Source: Patescibacteria group bacterium (GTDB lineage Bacteria; Patescibacteriota; Patescibacteriia; Patescibacteriales; UBA12075). Taken from it: a stretch of 64,000 nt of DNA. Position 1 is the first letter of the stretch. Every line of letters begins with the position of its first letter. The position numbers and the translations under genes are program-made. The notes under the pieces were generated by a model. The model ran no database searches and was not told the DNA's origin. It was given only the letters and a program-made list of their open reading frames with translations. Positions 12,355 to 60,310 of this stretch are shown here, piece by piece. Where the stretch lies: positions 128,745 to 192,744 of the forward strand of contig JAHILH010000005.1 in NCBI GenBank assembly GCA_018897195.1, in the 5' to 3' direction.

Positions 12355-12369
12355 AACTTTCCAGTATCG

Positions 12370-12402
12370 CTATTCCCGCTCTTGCGGAAATACAGGTACC
12401 AC
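12370..12402 (+). repeat. Degenerate copy of repeat family 2
   Basis: ctattcccgctcttgcggaaatacaggtaccac versus gtcattcccgcgaaggcgggaatccaggcgccac. Confidence 0.5.
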
Positions 12403-12457
12403 GTCTTATATTTTAATTAAATTATTTTTTAAACAAAGAGCCCGACAAGAAGATTGA

Positions 12458-25468: not shown

Positions 25469-25541
25469 TGCGCCCAACAGGATTTGAACCTGTGACCGTT
25501 TGCTTAAGAGGCAACTGCTCTACCAGCTGAGCTATGAGCGC
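25469..25541 (-). tRNA. tRNA-Lys (anticodon CTT), CCA not encoded
   Basis: Minus strand GCGCTCATAGCTCAGCTGGTAGAGCAGTTGCCTCTTAAGCAAACGGTCACAGGTTCAAATCCTGTTGGGCGCA folds as a cloverleaf; loop CT-CTT-AA. Confidence 0.9.
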
Positions 25542-25577
25542 ATGTATATGACATAAAATTACTCTTATGTATTTGTG

Positions 25578-25651
25578 TGGCTGAGGAGAGACTTGAACTC
25601 TCGACCTTAGCGTTATGAGTGCTACGCTCTAACCAGCTGAGCTACCCAGCC
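25578..25651 (-). tRNA. tRNA with CAT anticodon (elongator Met type; Ile2-lysidine not excluded), CCA not encoded
   Basis: GGCTGGGTAGCTCAGCTGGTTAGAGCGTAGCACTCATAACGCTAAGGTCGAGAGTTCAAGTCTCTCCTCAGCCA; lacks the 3 G-C anticodon-stem pairs of initiators. Confidence 0.85.
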
Positions 25652-25669
25652 CTATATTTCTGCTCTATG

Positions 25670-25743
25670 TGCACCTGACAGGATTCGAACCTGTAACCTC
25701 TTGGTCCGAAGCCAAGCACTCTATCCAGTTGAGCTACAAGTGC
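25670..25743 (-). tRNA. tRNA-Arg (anticodon TCG), CCA not encoded
   Basis: GCACTTGTAGCTCAACTGGATAGAGTGCTTGGCTTCGGACCAAGAGGTTACAGGTTCGAATCCTGTCAGGTGCA; loop CT-TCG-GA. Confidence 0.9.
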
Positions 25744-25944
25744 AAAAAAGAATAATGCAAAAAACTCCTCAAAGGAGTTCTTTTAAATATTAGCATATTT
25801 AAAAAAATAATCAACCCCCAGAACAACAAATATTTAATTAGTGTTTTTGTTCAATATTAGCCACTTTTTATCCACGAGGCATTGACAAGCTATTTTATTT
25901 ATGTTGATATTTATAAATATTTTTTGAACAAAAAAACTTGTTTA

Positions 25945-26640
25945 TTACTTCTTTAAAACCAAATAATAATTATACTCATCCTTATACAACTTCTCAATCT
26001 TCAAGCCTGACTTTTTCACCAATCGCGTCAATTCCCATTTTGTAAACGCATGATAATATCTTTTCTTCGAAACATCCTCCGCTTCATTTTTCCAGTGAAA
26101 TAAAATATCACCGAAATCCATTTTGTTTTTACCAATTAATTTCAAAAAGAAATACTTCCAAATTAGCTTTTTATTTTTTTTATTTGCCCACAAATTCCAT
26201 GCTGAGATTATAATTCGCCCATCATCCTTAATCTTGTTTTTCATCTGACGCAAGGCGTTAATGCGTAACTCTTGATCTGGCAAGTGATGTAATACAGCAA
26301 TTGAATAAACAAAATCAAAATCTAATTCATTAATCTTACCCAAATCTAAAATATCAGCCACGGCAAATTCAGATTCAGGATACTGCTTCTGTGCCAAGGT
26401 AATTAAATTTTCACTTTGATCAATGCCTAGATACTTTATTTTCTTACCAGCAAACGCCTCTAACAGGCGTCCATTGCCACAACCAGCATCAAGCATCTTG
26501 TCACCGTCTTTTACGTCTCTGGTCAGATTTAACAACTCTGGCCAAATGCCTTTCTTGCGCGTCTCATCAAACTCCGCCGCAATACTTTCATAATTATCTT
26601 TAACGATGGTTAGCAATTCTTTTTGTGTATTTTTATCCAT
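25945..26640 (-). CDS. Class I SAM-dependent methyltransferase
   Basis: 231 aa; motif I LDAGCGNGRL, post-I and motif II pattern. Confidence 0.8.
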   Translation of the reverse strand: MDKNTQKELLTIVKDNYESIAAEFDETRKKGIWPELLNLTRDVKDGDKMLDAGCGNGRLLEAFAGKKIKYLGIDQSENLITLAQKQYPESEFAVADILDLGKINELDFDFVYSIAVLHHLPDQELRINALRQMKNKIKDDGRIIISAWNLWANKKNKKLIWKYFFLKLIGKNKMDFGDILFHWKNEAEDVSKKRYYHAFTKWELTRLVKKSGLKIEKLYKDEYNYYLVLKK

Positions 26641-26683
26641 ATATTTGTTTTAATTAAAGCATTATTATTTAAAAAAATAAAGA

Positions 26684-26703
26684 CCCACTCATCCATGAGT
26701 AGG
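26684..26703 (-). terminator. Hairpin plus U-rich tract at end of rRNA unit / upstream of methyltransferase
   Basis: Minus strand cctactcat-gg-atgagtggg followed by tctttattttttt. Confidence 0.6.
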
Positions 26704-26719
26704 CCAAAAAATTTTTAGA

Positions 26720-26925
26720 GAGAAAGGACAGAGGGATATTCACCATTCCTCATATCACGCCACATCCGTCGATTTATCTTACCATTCCATAGACAAGTAG
26801 TGGTTTTAATCCGTACCACCAACCTTGTTAGTCTCCTTGGTGGGCATGGCCACAATAAATCGTAAACAAAAAGAACAAATCGAATCTTTCTACTTTCTAG
26901 AAGTTTCATATTCCTTCCTCCTTTC
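26720..26925 (-). ncRNA. Unclassified structured RNA candidate between 5S rRNA and methyltransferase gene
   Basis: 5' GAAAGGAGGAAGGAAUAU (26925-26908) pairs with 3' AUAUCCCUCUGUCCUUUC (26739-26722); internal hairpins CCACCAA..UUGGUGG, CGAUUUAU..AUAAAUCG, CUUCUA..UAGAAAG. Confidence 0.35.
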
Positions 26926-26950
26926 GATTATTGAGTAATAAAAAAATCAT

Positions 26951-27070
26951 TGTTCTGGCGGCGACCTACTTTCCCAGGGCTCAGGCCCAAGTATCATCAG
27001 CGCTGAGAGGCTTAACTTCTGAGTTCGGAATGGGATCAGGTGTGACCCTCTCGCTAGTGCCACCAAAACA
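26951..27070 (-). rRNA. rrf: 5S ribosomal RNA
   Basis: Minus strand ...ttggtggcactagcgagagggtcacacctgatcccattccgaactcagaagttaagcctctcagcgctgatgatacttggg...gtaggtcgccgccagaaca. Confidence 0.93.
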
Positions 27071-27140
27071 ATGATTTCTTTATCAATGTGTAATATAATA
27101 TTATTCAAATAACGACCAGAAACTTACTTTAAACCCAAAA

Positions 27141-30186
<3,046 letters not shown>

Positions 30187-30570: not shown

Positions 30571-30598
30571 ATTATACAGTAATAAAAAAATCTGTCAA
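30571..30598 (-). promoter_or_regulatory. Sigma70-type promoter TTGACA-16-TATAAT
   Basis: Minus strand TTGACA (30598-30593), 16-nt spacer, TATAAT (30576-30571). Confidence 0.55.
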
Positions 30599-33703: not shown

Positions 33704-34399
33704 TTATTTTTCTACTATGGCCAGATTTATTTCTTTCTGTGTTTCCAACACTGCTTCAACTGGATTGGTCGCCATGGTTATCGGGCGACCAATAACAAGA
33801 TAATCTGCGCCCATTTTTACCGCATCATAGGGCGTGGTAATTCTGGACTGATCATCATTGGGATCAAGATGCCACTTTGGACGAATACCGGGAGTCACTT
33901 TCTTCAATTTATTCAACTCGGGAAACTGAGACAGAAACTTAAGCTCCATTGGTGAGCAGACAATTCCATAAACCCCGGCGAGTACAGCATTTCTGGCAAA
34001 TTGCAAAACTTTTGCCTTGACAGGCATGCCGTAATTAATATTACACTCTTCTTCATTCAATGAAGTTAAAACTGTAACAGCCAGAATTTTTGAATCGCCA
34101 GCCGCTTCCACGGCCGCCCTCATCATCGCCACACCACCAGAGGCATGAACCGTTATTAAAGACGGTTTATAGAAGATATGCTTTTTAACACGATTCTTGA
34201 CCGTATTGGGAATGTCGTGAAACTTGGCATCATCCATAACCTCAGCATGTCTGCTAAGCACTTCAAGGATTGTAACCCCAAGACCTCCATCGAGTAAATC
34301 GTTGGCCTTAAGAATTACACCGGTGCCTTCTAGGTTTTTTGCCAAAACCAATGCATCTTCGGTATCCATTCCATCTAATGCCACAATAATTTTCGACAT
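33704..34399 (-). CDS. pyrF: Orotidine 5'-phosphate decarboxylase
   Basis: IVALD...LKAND...DAKFHDIPNTV...VIGRPI. Confidence 0.85.
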   Translation of the reverse strand: MSKIIVALDGMDTEDALVLAKNLEGTGVILKANDLLDGGLGVTILEVLSRHAEVMDDAKFHDIPNTVKNRVKKHIFYKPSLITVHASGGVAMMRAAVEAAGDSKILAVTVLTSLNEEECNINYGMPVKAKVLQFARNAVLAGVYGIVCSPMELKFLSQFPELNKLKKVTPGIRPKWHLDPNDDQSRITTPYDAVKMGADYLVIGRPITMATNPVEAVLETQKEINLAIVEK

Positions 34400-34535
34400 C
34401 TTTATTCCTCCCTCATTGATTTGATATTTATGGATTTATAAAAATCCGACTTAAACGAACAAAATAAAATAACCACTAAGGGTTATTTTATTTTTTGATA
34501 TTACTACATATTTCTTAAAAAATCAATAGGCATAA

Positions 34536-53032: not shown

Positions 53033-53210
53033 CCGTCATCCCCGCGAAGGCGGGGATCCAGGTTCCACGGTAGATGAATTAAAAAATTATAGTAATTTAT
53101 CTCAAAAAAAGATTGTCTATACAAATAGACAATCTTTTTTTTATTTTAACTCGTTTAGTTCTAAAAAAGGAATTCGAGGTGCCTGGATTCCCGCCTTCGC
53201 GGGAATGACG
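53033..53210. repeat. MITE-like unit: inverted pair of family 2 repeats (GTCATYCCCGCGAAGGCGGGRATCCAGG) enclosing the intergenic terminator
   Basis: 53033-53070 ccgtcatccccgcgaaggcggggatccaggttccacgg; 53176-53210 is the reverse complement of cgtcattcccgcgaaggcgggaatccaggcacctc. Confidence 0.85.
53110..53135. terminator. Bidirectional terminator between LCP gene and elp3
   Basis: agattgtctat-acaa-atagacaatct flanked by A7/T8. Confidence 0.8.
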
Positions 53211-53216
53211 AAAGTA

Positions 53217-55320: not shown

Positions 55321-56685
55321 ATGGAAATAAACCCAGGTATTTTTAAAGCCTACGACATTCGCGGTATCTATGGAACAGAACTAAGCGAAGAGGTAGCCTA
55401 TCGTCTTGGCAAAGCCTATGTAGAATTACGTCGTGAAGATGGTCTTCAGAATGATTTACAAATTGTTGTCGGTGAAGATATGCGCCTATCTTCACCCCAA
55501 TTAAAAGAATCCCTAATCAAAGGTCTTACGGAAGCTGGTGCTAATGTCATCGACATCGGTCTTGCCTCAACTCCGACATTTTATTTTGCCGTGGCCAATT
55601 ATAATTACGATGGCGGTATTATTGTTTCTGCATCTCATAATCCAGGCGAATACAATGGTTTCAAAATAACCCGCTCCAAAGCTATTCCCGTTAGCGGCGA
55701 AACTGGCATGATGATTTTACGCGACAAAGTCATTGCTAACAATTTCACACCCAGTGACAAAATTGGCCAGGTTATCAAAAAGGACAATGTGCTTCAAGAT
55801 CAAATCGCGCATGACCTACAATTCGGTAATCTACAAAATATCAAACCGATTAAAATCGCCATCGACACTGCTAATAGCATGGGCGCTCAATATTTAGACG
55901 AATTATTCAAACATTTGCCTTGCGAGTTAATAAAAATGAACTGGGAGCTCGACGGCACCTTCCCGGCGCACGAAGCCGACCCGCTTAAAGAAGAAAATTT
56001 AGAAGATTTAAAAAAGAAAGTTCTTGAGACAAGCTCTGATTTCGGCATCACCACTGACGGCGACGGCGACCGCATTTTCTTTGTTGATAACGAAGGCCAA
56101 GCCATCGACCAAGCTATCATCCGTGGCATTCTCTCGATGATTTTTCTTAAAGAAAAACCTGGCTCCAAGATTTGCTACGACATTCGTCCAGGCAAAATCA
56201 CTCAAGACCTAATTGAAGAAAATGGCGGCATCCCGATTGTTACGCGCGTTGGTCATTCTCTCATCAAAGAACAAACATTAAAAGAAGGCGCTTACTTCGC
56301 TGGCGAATCCAGCGGCCACTTCTTCCTCAATATGCCGATTGGCTGTTTTGAAGTTCCTGTCATTGTTACTCTTAAATTATTAGAATACTTTTCTCAAAGT
56401 GGCCAAACCGTCGCCGAGACTGTCAAACCCTTCAAGAGATATTTTCATTCAGGTGAGATCAACTCCGTGGTTGCTGACAAAGATATTGTCATCGCTACTC
56501 TCATCGCCAAATATCCCGATGGTCAACTCAACCGCCTTGATGGCATTACCATAGAATACCCTGATTTCTGGTTCAATGTCCGTGGCTCTAATACTGAACC
56601 AAAATTACGCCTAAATCTTGAAGCTAGAACCAAAGAAATCATGGAAGTTAGACGAGATGAGGTATTAGGCATAATTCGCGCCTAA
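55321..56685 (+). CDS. Phosphomannomutase/phosphoglucomutase (alpha-D-phosphohexomutase)
   Basis: Phosphoserine loop SASHNPGEYNGFK, metal site TDGDGDR, GESSGH. Confidence 0.92.
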   Translation: MEINPGIFKAYDIRGIYGTELSEEVAYRLGKAYVELRREDGLQNDLQIVVGEDMRLSSPQLKESLIKGLTEAGANVIDIGLASTPTFYFAVANYNYDGGIIVSASHNPGEYNGFKITRSKAIPVSGETGMMILRDKVIANNFTPSDKIGQVIKKDNVLQDQIAHDLQFGNLQNIKPIKIAIDTANSMGAQYLDELFKHLPCELIKMNWELDGTFPAHEADPLKEENLEDLKKKVLETSSDFGITTDGDGDRIFFVDNEGQAIDQAIIRGILSMIFLKEKPGSKICYDIRPGKITQDLIEENGGIPIVTRVGHSLIKEQTLKEGAYFAGESSGHFFLNMPIGCFEVPVIVTLKLLEYFSQSGQTVAETVKPFKRYFHSGEINSVVADKDIVIATLIAKYPDGQLNRLDGITIEYPDFWFNVRGSNTEPKLRLNLEARTKEIMEVRRDEVLGIIRA

Positions 56686-56694
56686 TAACTCATT

Positions 56695-56844
56695 CTCCCT
56701 CGCCCCGCCAGGAGAGGGTTAACGTAATCCTCGTCCAACTAATAATAAAGGGGACGGGGTGAGGGAGCATTATTAAAGACATTTCCGCTTATTTTCATCA
56801 CCCGTTCTACCTCACCCCAGCCCTCTCCTACAAAGGAGAGGGAG
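56695..56844. repeat. Cluster of three family 1 repeat units/fragments
   Basis: 56695-56718 ctccctcgccccgccaggagaggg; 56750-56767 ggggacggggtgagggag; 56810-56844 cctcaccccagccctctcctacaaaggagagggag. Confidence 0.85.
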
Positions 56845-56858
56845 TTAATAGTTACCTC

Positions 56859-56886
56859 TTGACATTTTCTGGGAATAGTACATAAT
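56859..56886 (+). promoter_or_regulatory. Sigma70-type promoter TTGACA-16-CATAAT
   Basis: TTGACA 56859-56864; CATAAT 56881-56886. Confidence 0.5.
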
Positions 56887-56893
56887 ACTGATA

Positions 56894-57033
56894 AGGAATT
56901 GTTTTTCGCCTAAAAAAAGGCCCTCCCTCAGCCACCATTCTTCGGGCGACTCAAAGTCTCAAAAATTCAATTCCCCACCCTGGGAGGTATCTCACGAAGC
57001 TATGCTTTGTGAGATACCTCCCTCCCTTTTTTT
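56894..57033 (+). ncRNA. Candidate ~140-nt small RNA with C-rich motifs
   Basis: Promoter upstream; perfect 14-bp terminator stem gggaggtatctcac/gtgagatacctccc (56982-57022) + T7; no ORF; no downstream same-strand gene. Confidence 0.45.
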
Positions 57034-57055
57034 AAAAAATACATTTATACAAAAA

Positions 57056-57083
57056 AACTCGTCCTGGATATTTAGGACGAGTT
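57056..57083. terminator. Hairpin terminator downstream of trpS
   Basis: aactcgtcct-ggatattt-aggacgagtt flanked by A7/T6. Confidence 0.75.
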
Positions 57084-57102
57084 TTTTAATTTGAAATAAT
57101 TT

Positions 57103-58086
57103 TTACATTCCCAAAACTTTCTTCGCTCGCGCCAAAACCTCCTGCGCCATCGGCCGCACCTTCGCCGCTCCTTCATCCAAAACTCGACGCACTTCTTCGT
57201 CGCTAATCTGATTATATTTTTCTTGAAAACTAATTAAGAAATTTTTCACCACTTCGGCTAAGTCTTTCTTAAACGGTCCGTAATTCATGCCTGCATATTT
57301 CTTTTCCAAGCTAGCAATCGTCTCGCCGGTCAAGGAAGAATAAATCGTCAACAAATTAGCAATTCCCGGCTTCTGCTCGACATTATAAACAACTTCCGCG
57401 CCCGAGTCTGTGGTTGCCTTCATAATTTTCTTTGCTGCCTTCTCCGGACTATCAAGCAGGGCAATATAACCAGCTTCACTCTCCGCACTCTTACTCATTT
57501 TCTTTTCCGGATTATCTAAAGCCATAATGCGTGCACCCTCCTTACGAATAAGCGCTTGTGGCACCACGAATGTTTGCTCAAAATGATGATTAAAGCGTCG
57601 CGCCAAATCACGCGCTAATTCCACGTGTTGCAACTGATCATCGCCCACTGGCACAATTTCTGTGTTATACAAAATTATATCCGCTGCCATTAAAACTGGG
57701 TAATCAAACAAACCAACACTCACATTCTCCTGGTTCTCGCCTGCCTTATCCTTAAACTGCGTCATCTTATTCATGTCACTCATGCGTGCCGCCGTACAAT
57801 TCAATATCCAAGCCAATTCAGTATGCTCTGTCATCGTTGATTGCTGAAAAATTGTCGCCTTTTTTGGATCAATTCCAAAGGCTAAATAAATCTTCGCGAT
57901 TTCAATAATCCGTCGTCGCAACAACTCCGGCTTTTGCATCACCGTAATCGCATGATAATCGACCACACAAAAAACCGCCTCATACTCATCCTGCATTGGC
58001 ACCCACTGCGAAATCGCCCCAATATAATTACCAATATGCAAATCACCACTCGGCTTGATGCCGGAAAATATTCTTTTTTTAGACAT
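57103..58086 (-). CDS. trpS: Tryptophan--tRNA ligase
   Basis: GIKPSGDLHIGNYIGA (HIGH) and KKMSKSA (KMSKS); 327 aa. Confidence 0.95.
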   Translation of the reverse strand: MSKKRIFSGIKPSGDLHIGNYIGAISQWVPMQDEYEAVFCVVDYHAITVMQKPELLRRRIIEIAKIYLAFGIDPKKATIFQQSTMTEHTELAWILNCTAARMSDMNKMTQFKDKAGENQENVSVGLFDYPVLMAADIILYNTEIVPVGDDQLQHVELARDLARRFNHHFEQTFVVPQALIRKEGARIMALDNPEKKMSKSAESEAGYIALLDSPEKAAKKIMKATTDSGAEVVYNVEQKPGIANLLTIYSSLTGETIASLEKKYAGMNYGPFKKDLAEVVKNFLISFQEKYNQISDEEVRRVLDEGAAKVRPMAQEVLARAKKVLGM

Positions 58087-58277
58087 ATATTCAAAAATTA
58101 CTTTTTAACCTAATATTATTATATAATACCCCCTCCCAGAACACAAGTATTGACATTTTGGCGAAAGTATGACACAATATCAGTATAATTCTCGTTTTCG
58201 TGTGAAAAAGAGAAAAAAAATTACAAATTGCCCTTTATAAATACTAAATATCTAAATAACTCAAGGAGGAGTAATAG

Positions 58278-60076: not shown

Positions 60077-60297
60077 GTCATTCCCGCGAAGGCGGGAATC
60101 CAGGCGCCACAATTATTGGATTTATAATTATAGAGACTAATTTTGATACAAACATTAATAATAAATAATGCTTTGTAAATTTAAGTTAAGGAATTTGAAT
60201 TCCCAACTATATAAAAAGTTATAAGCTTTTATATAATTCTCCTTATACTGAAAACAATCTACGAGGTGCCTGGATCCCCGCCTTCGCGGGGATGACG
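60077..60297. repeat. MITE-like unit: inverted pair of family 2 repeats around a 152-bp AT-rich core
   Basis: 60077-60110 gtcattcccgcgaaggcgggaatccaggcgccac; 60263-60297 is the reverse complement of cgtcatccccgcgaaggcggggatccaggcacctc. Confidence 0.85.
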
Positions 60298-60310
60298 ATG
60301 GAAAAAATAT

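Follow-up and report, generated by a model that had tools for sequence, protein, structure and literature searches.

A probable small RNA gene with a C-rich loop downstream of the phosphomannomutase gene in a narrow group of uncultured Parcubacteria

The window, that is, the whole 64-kb stretch of DNA that was analysed, belongs to an uncultured member of the Parcubacteria (Patescibacteria/CPR) and contains on its + strand a phosphomannomutase/phosphoglucomutase gene (PMM, 55321-56685, with the stop at 56685), which is separated by a 417-nt spacer from the convergent trpS gene (57103-58086, - strand; Pfam PF00579, named tryptophan--tRNA ligase). The TrpS protein of the window is 100% identical to one encoded on contig JAHIQA010000007.1 of assembly GCA_018902835.1. 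The spacer holds a predicted small RNA (sRNA) of ~140 nt on the + strand (56891-57033), for which we infer a start at A56891-A56893, 5-7 nt past a -10 box, and an end in a run of seven T residues. A covariance model built from the seven homologues described below matches 56891-57032 with 117 bits, and no + strand open reading frame (ORF) of at least 30 aa was found between the PMM stop at 56685 and position 57001. An earlier, sequence-only reading of this DNA had placed a promoter, three C-rich motifs, a terminator hairpin and a T7 run here, all at coordinates that proved correct on re-check, and had argued that the region is not a 5' leader, which is borne out by the next gene, trpS, being convergent and identified by Pfam. 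Between the sRNA and trpS lies the bidirectional terminator of trpS (57051-57087, A7-CTCGTCC...GGACGAG-T6), which was recognised from its sequence, has stems that covary in relatives and is a back-up stop for read-through from the sRNA.

The element was not found in GTDB species representatives, in which trpS is at most 70% identical to that of the window, and a trpS scan of genome contigs gave 80 loci at 44-70% identity, none with nhmmer or blastn similarity to the element. Closer relatives (trpS 80-94% and PMM 88-95% identical) are present in a large protein collection. The element occurs in seven distinct versions, all from close relatives whose trpS is 86% or more, or whose PMM is 88% or more, identical, namely those of the window (also at loci L081 and L082), L092, the L083 type (also L084-86, L094 and L095), L087, L088, L091 and L099 (GCA_020720845.1). 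A search for homologues in relatives had been suggested as a check in the sequence-only reading, and the versions that it yielded retain both the promoter and the C-rich core. All seven immediately follow PMM and share its orientation, and six of them are in turn followed by the convergent trpS. It is absent from L089 and L090 (trpS 80%), which have a 157-nt spacer with an ordinary terminator, from L093 (71%), where a 91-aa ORF stands in its place, and from L100-102 (PMM 74%), where a promoter and a 98-aa membrane-protein ORF are found; since it is absent where trpS is at most 80% and PMM at most 74% identical, the sRNA would seem dispensable at that distance. A pattern scan of metagenomes for the conserved promoter and 5' end re-found only lineages already known, and covariance model R1, run over 748 kb of relatives' loci and the window, returned only the seven known members. 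The sRNA family is real but roughly genus-level. The genes for small predicted membrane proteins that occupy the slot after PMM in more distant relatives (L100, 3854-4223, 98 aa, with a consensus promoter; L093, 4162-4437 on the - strand, 91 aa) show no sequence relationship to the sRNA.

The sRNA is preceded by a sigma-70-type promoter (56859-56886, +), in which TTGACA (56859-56864) and CATAAT (56881-56886) are separated by a 16-nt spacer and together match the consensus at 11 of 12 positions. This promoter, too, had been noted from the letters of the window, and its boxes are kept in relatives: six of the seven family members share identical hexamers set 16 nt apart, and the promoter of L099 (TTGACA-17-TATCTT) is still recognisable. 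In relatives it takes the form TGCATAAT, with an extended -10. When window and relatives are compared, the 32-nt promoter shows 59-81% identity and the 4-fold degenerate sites of trpS, which are near saturation, 39-57%; conservation ends upstream of the -35 box. Promoter-like sites that match at 11 or more of 12 positions are ~6-fold enriched in the window (13, vs 2.3 +/- 1.7 in Markov-1 simulations), and on account of this enrichment they are taken to be mostly real in this organism; they include a 12/12 consensus promoter at 30598 (-), upstream of the 23S rRNA gene, and divergent promoters ahead of PMM. The 155-aa gene that is divergent from trpS has a promoter at 58150-58178 (TTGACA-17-CACAAT with TG), whose -35 box and flank (TTGACATTTT) resemble those of the sRNA promoter. 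Within the transcript, identity between window and relatives is 56-94% over the first 16 nt, 39-71% over the terminator and ~30%, with large indels, over the interior; the best-conserved part of the RNA is its 5' end, not the C-rich loop.

The whole RNA is predicted to fold at -53.5 kcal/mol (z = -7.7 vs shuffles), and the 5' domain of the window alone gives z = -3.0, within a range of -1.8 to -4.5 for the 5' domains of the seven homologues. The 5' domain is closed by a helix, P1, which joins nt 5-16 of the transcript to the segment before the terminator. Its 5' strand (GGAAUUG, then UUUUU; 56895-56906, +) belongs to the best-conserved part of the transcript (AUAAGGAAUUG), and its 3' strand (AAAAA-UU-CAAUUCC; 56963-56974, +) is supported by folding and by pairing in the alignment. 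A pyrimidine-rich linker (CCACCCU; 56975-56981, +), single-stranded with a predicted unpaired probability of ~0.9, leads from P1 to the terminator; a short C-rich linker is present in six of the seven homologues, and L091 has CAAA. The intrinsic terminator (56982-57033, +) consists of a hairpin (56982-57022), a UCCC spacer and U7 (57027-57033). The sequence-only reading had located the hairpin and its T7 correctly but had counted 14 bp, whereas the stem has 19 pairs, i.e. 14 Watson-Crick pairs followed by G-U, A-U, A-U, G-C and C-G, with a 3-nt loop. With CCUCCC present twice, the base of the stem can shift by 4 nt, and the U tract would then lie beside the stem.

These two helices were specified by hand as a structure on a MAFFT alignment of the seven homologues (A4), in which 84.9% of the positions concerned are paired, vs at most 47.6% with slid partners, and 20 pairs are changed on both sides, vs at most 9 in the slid controls; the observed values were reached in none of 500 shuffles. 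The terminator is 87% paired across relatives (slid controls at most 48%), and 15 of its 19 pairs show compensatory changes, both in the alignment and with RNAalifold. P1 is 82% paired across the alignment, lies in the minimum free energy fold of all seven homologues and shows changes of both partners in 5 of its 12 pairs, among them G-C to A-U in L099 (position 6), U-A to A-U in L088 (position 9) and U-A to C-G in L091 (position 10). With only seven related sequences, such covariation counts are supportive rather than proof, and as the family comprises only these seven closely related sequences, the apparent conservation is inflated by shared ancestry. The promoter, the 5' end and the terminator are conserved or covary across the seven sequences and no ORF is conserved, in line with the earlier description of a non-coding RNA defined by a promoter and a terminator. 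That a selected, structured transcript exists is highly likely, and the comparison of sequences suggests that it is very probably a real ~140-nt non-coding RNA gene, confined to a narrow group of uncultured Parcubacteria.

Three C-rich motifs had been proposed to be exposed in this RNA: CCCTCCCTC (56921-56929), TTCCCCACCC (56971-56980) and CCTCCCTCCC (57017-57026). The first, which reads CCCUCCCUC in the transcript (56921-56929, +) and holds CCUCC, complementary to a Shine-Dalgarno GGAGG, is the proposed seed, and it turned out to be the sole conserved island in a fast-evolving interior. Its core CC(U/A)C is aligned column for column in all seven versions, in surroundings that are ~30% identical, and the island reads CCCUC across the seven, with CCCAC in L091 and UCCUC in L099. 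The loop sequence as a whole drifts among the homologues (CCCUCCCUC, CCCCCUCUC, CCCCCUCUU, CCCACCU, UCCUCC). With a predicted unpaired probability of ~0.9 in the window, L092, L083, L087, L088 and L099, and partial exposure in L091, the first motif is mostly accessible. The UUCC of the second motif (UUCCCCACCC), by contrast, is the 3' strand of the conserved P1, and the third motif (CCUCCCUCCC, 57017-57026) is mostly paired as the 3' arm of the terminator, which leaves the first motif and the CC-rich linker exposed, roughly one and a half motifs out of three. The 5' domain is 30-35% C with a C/G ratio of 1.7-2.4 in all seven versions, vs 23% C and a C/G ratio of 1.45 for the strand of the window. 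The C-rich 9-mer alone is not significant, as it occurred at least once in 22 of 100 shuffles; what sets the element apart from chance is above all its conservation among relatives. Whatever the orientation of the genes, GC skew is strongly negative throughout the window (about -0.1 to -0.3 per 2-kb bin), so that more C-rich motifs are to be expected by chance on the + strand, and C-richness is partly a property of that strand.

A scan of the whole window at Rfam gathering scores returned rRNA and tRNA only, without SRP RNA, 6S RNA, tmRNA, RNase P RNA, T-box or other riboswitch matches, and the check for a known family that the sequence-only reading had advised accordingly gave none at that score. 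A closed 5' domain with a separate terminator does not fit the SRP, 6S, tmRNA, RNase P, T-box and riboswitch classes, and a T-box leader is impossible because trpS is on the other strand. In a permissive scan of 56600-57200, the best match was RsaE (RF01820), at 56980-57086 with 37.0 bits (E = 1.9e-4), vs a gathering score of 79; the remaining matches were noise. The RsaE match aligns with the terminator hairpin, the CUCCC that follows it and the trpS terminator, not with the body of the RNA; it is spurious and is produced by the sRNA terminator together with the trpS terminator (57051-57087). At E up to 1, RsaE had no match in L083, L087, L088, L091 and L092, and the permissive scan of these five relatives placed no family on the element. 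As the match is sub-threshold, off the RNA body and gone in relatives, the sRNA is not a member of RsaE, and the earlier comparison with RsaE/RoxS-type regulators stands as an analogy and falls as a statement of homology.

The analogy has several parts. In Bacillus subtilis, RoxS and FsrA interact with their mRNA targets through C-rich regions (PMC8216469). Like RoxS/RsaE, FsrA and CsfG of the Firmicutes, the RNA of the window is predicted to be small (~100-150 nt) with its own promoter and terminator, and its C-rich stretches, modelled in loops or linkers, may be able to pair with G-rich or Shine-Dalgarno sequences; one conserved accessible C-rich loop together with a C-rich linker is predicted in its fold. 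Unlike RsaE, which is conserved across the Bacillales and has a 5' hairpin with a CCCC loop, it belongs to the phylum Patescibacteria, is very narrowly distributed and has a closing helix around a multi-loop 5' domain. 6C RNA of the Actinobacteria (RF01066) is formed by two hairpins, each with a C-rich loop; the sRNA is similarly small and has C-rich loops, but it has one conserved C-rich loop region, which lies inside a closed multi-loop domain, and 6C RNA was absent from the 43 Rfam matches obtained at E up to 10 in 56600-57200. Type I 3'-UTR sRNAs have their own promoter; the enterobacterial examples DapZ and MicL typically depend on Hfq. Like these, the sRNA adjoins the 3' end of a gene (PMM) whose orientation it shares, and it has a promoter to itself and an apparently shared terminator, whereas it has no sequence relationship to them and, in the lineage of the window, repeats lie between the stop codon and the promoter. 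Full-text searches found no papers describing sRNAs in Patescibacteria/CPR.

Taken together, the features above suggest the following course of events. The near-consensus sigma-70 promoter would start the RNA at ~56891-56893, and P1 would pair its purine-rich 5' end (AAGGAAUUG) with the pyrimidine-rich CAAUUCC, thereby enclosing the fast-evolving, C-rich and G-poor interior and presenting the conserved CCCUC/CCUCC in loops, while the C-rich linker would lead to the strong intrinsic terminator. The exposed C-rich loop could then pair in trans with G-rich sequences, chiefly GGAGG-type Shine-Dalgarno sequences of target mRNAs, and such pairing may block translation initiation or alter mRNA stability. 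In mechanism only, and by analogy, the sRNA may thus act as RoxS/RsaE and FsrA do in Firmicutes. We put a probability of roughly 45% on this reading, according to which the locus encodes an independently transcribed sRNA of the PMM 3' region that would act in trans through its C-rich loop on G-rich or Shine-Dalgarno regions.

A purely cis-acting PMM 3' UTR is the main rival, followed by a protein-binding or sponge RNA. In the former case, the element would be a structured 3' UTR and terminator that protects against 3' exonucleases, terminates transcription and insulates against the convergent trpS, with a minor promoter and no RNA acting in trans. PMM invariably precedes the element and is read in the same direction, and the interior of the element evolves almost neutrally. 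In L088, the -35 box lies ~27 nt past the PMM stop, and in L099 it directly abuts the end of the PMM gene; no terminator was found between the PMM stop and the element in either of them, and since there is no room for another, transcription of PMM must continue across the element as far as its terminator, so that the sRNA terminator probably also ends the PMM mRNA. A type I 3'-UTR-embedded arrangement, with the same orientation, a promoter at or next to the end of PMM and a shared terminator, is found in all seven versions, and in the lineage of the window repeats are inserted between the PMM stop and the sRNA promoter. A function in cis alone would leave several observations aside, however: the -35 and -10 boxes and their spacer are conserved far above the identity of 4-fold sites, near-consensus promoters are strongly enriched and stand upstream of genes in this genome, the bidirectional trpS terminator 30 nt downstream could already stop PMM transcripts, and P1 starts 4-5 nt past the predicted start, i.e. 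the folded domain coincides with the 5' end defined by the promoter. On balance, we regard the cis-acting 3' UTR as unlikely. An RNA that titrates a protein through its conserved, purine-rich 5' AAGGA or its C-rich loops, or that sequesters G-rich RNA, would agree with the best-conserved primary sequence being the 5'-end AUAAGGAAUUG and not the loop, with the window scan having found no significant mRNA target, and with the abundance in this genome of G-rich repeat arms (GGAGAGGG, GCGAGGGAG) that are complementary to the loop. Against it, the AAGGA lies inside P1 and changes with compensation (AAGGAG, AAGAGA), which argues for structure and not for a sequence-specific protein site, only one or two GGA motifs are present, a number to which sponges of the CsrB/RsmZ type are not limited, and the data do not identify a partner protein; such a role is decidedly improbable.

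Three further explanations carry far less weight. A small protein or a dual function would have to start from the TTG/ATG at nt 9-11, after AAGGA, which opens ORFs of 4, 27, 43, 12, 37 and 36 codons (4 in the window and 12 in L087). ORFs of 27-43 codons are present in L092, L083, L088 and L099, and in distant relatives the slot is occupied by a gene for a small membrane protein that has its own promoter (98 aa in L100, 91 aa in L093), but L091 has no start codon there (TCG), a frameshift separates L092 from L083, the peptides are unrelated beyond the first residues, and the AAGGA is sequestered in P1 at a distance of 1 nt from the start codon, which is too close for a Shine-Dalgarno sequence, all of which makes coding very unlikely. 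The first two C-rich motifs had also been said to be able to rival the terminator's 3' strand for the GGGAGG of the 5' arm, which would make the RNA an orphan attenuator or riboswitch, and CCCUCCC and CCCCACCC can formally pair with GGGAGG in the window. Yet relatives do not preserve this competition: the L083 type (AGCGGUAAUUCAC) and L099 (GGAGACAC) lack a G-rich 5' arm, the 5' domain remains folded without the 3' arm and does not capture the 5' arm in six of the seven versions, hairpin energies of -16 to -34 kcal/mol dwarf alternatives of 5-6 bp, and two tandem terminators precede the convergent trpS, with no gene in the same orientation downstream, hence we consider an attenuator highly improbable. 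That the RNA is a degenerate copy of a C-rich/G-rich family-1 repeat without a function of its own, or had evolved from one as was suggested from the sequence, is hardly credible. Such repeats do adjoin the RNA in the window and both are C-rich, but blastn, nhmmer and the covariance model find no second copy of, or similarity to, the RNA anywhere else in the window, no repeat adjoins the RNA in L088 and L099, the number and type of repeats vary by lineage, and selection maintains the promoter, P1 and the terminator.

The family-1 repeats themselves are nested C-rich/G-rich hairpins (CCCTCACCCCG-ACCCTCTCC...GGAGAGGG...), which lie next to the sRNA at 56696-56775 and 56809-56845 and elsewhere in the window at 1578, 2275, 2907, 20568, 35350, 37551, 37603 and 47994. 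Between the PMM stop and the sRNA promoter, two are present in the window, one each in L083, L091 and L092, and none in L088 and L099. They behave like mobile REP/MITE-like insertions, not like ancestors of the sRNA. A second repeat family (GTCATCCCCGCGAAGGCGGGGATCCAGG...) is found at 53035-53085 with 53140-53211, at 60077-60127 with 60227-60298, and at 12369-12419; its inverted pairs flank spacers of ~55 nt (53086-53139) and ~100 nt (60128-60226), and a copy is also present in the PMM-trpS spacer of L089, which is without the sRNA.

GGAGG-type Shine-Dalgarno sequences, with which an sRNA acting in trans through its C-rich loop would pair, are in use in this organism, e.g. at 58265-58277. When the C-rich region was scanned for duplexes with 55 translation-initiation regions of the window, the outcome was not significant, as shuffled seeds did equally well in 34% of trials, a result that is weak either way because the gene starts are crude. 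The one 9-nt stretch of the window that is perfectly complementary to the loop is the Shine-Dalgarno region of pyrF (UGAGGGAGG, 34407-34415 in the - strand transcript; gene at 33704-34399, -). The closest available pyrF relative (L103) is 79% identical, comes from an unrelated sample and is not assignable to an sRNA lineage, and its Shine-Dalgarno region differs (AAGGAGAAGUGGGA). The L103 region holds GGAGAAG, which is complementary to CUUCUCC in an insertion of the L083, L092 and L087 sRNAs.

Regulatory RNAs are essentially uncharted in Patescibacteria/CPR, and no Rfam family matches here. An sRNA gene with comparative support, a clear promoter, covarying helices and a plausible seed would open a concrete way into the study of how ultra-small, host-dependent bacteria regulate genes after transcription. 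The finding carries limited weight, since the family occurs in a handful of close relatives and the proposed mechanism is a familiar one. What the sequences point to would be a new, narrow sRNA family with a mechanism of a familiar kind, in a phylum without described regulators of this sort. A bolder reading, which we hold to be quite unlikely, is that this is the first CPR riboregulator, a recently born 3'-UTR sRNA whose CCUCC loop mimics the anti-Shine-Dalgarno sequence of 16S rRNA and damps GGAGG-led mRNAs, possibly including that of pyrF; if true, it would operate in an organism with a minimal regulatory repertoire. On that reading, the slot after PMM, which in distant relatives holds a small membrane-protein gene with a promoter, might record how an RNA gene took the place of a protein gene, or how an RNA gene arose.

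Elsewhere in the window, the genes for 23S rRNA, 5S rRNA and three tRNAs lie together at 25469-30182 (- strand). The Rfam gathering scan found no 16S rRNA in the 64-kb window, and the rRNA genes therefore look unlinked. The 23S rRNA measures 3040 nt, compared with a model of 2925 nt, and thus carries ~115 nt extra.
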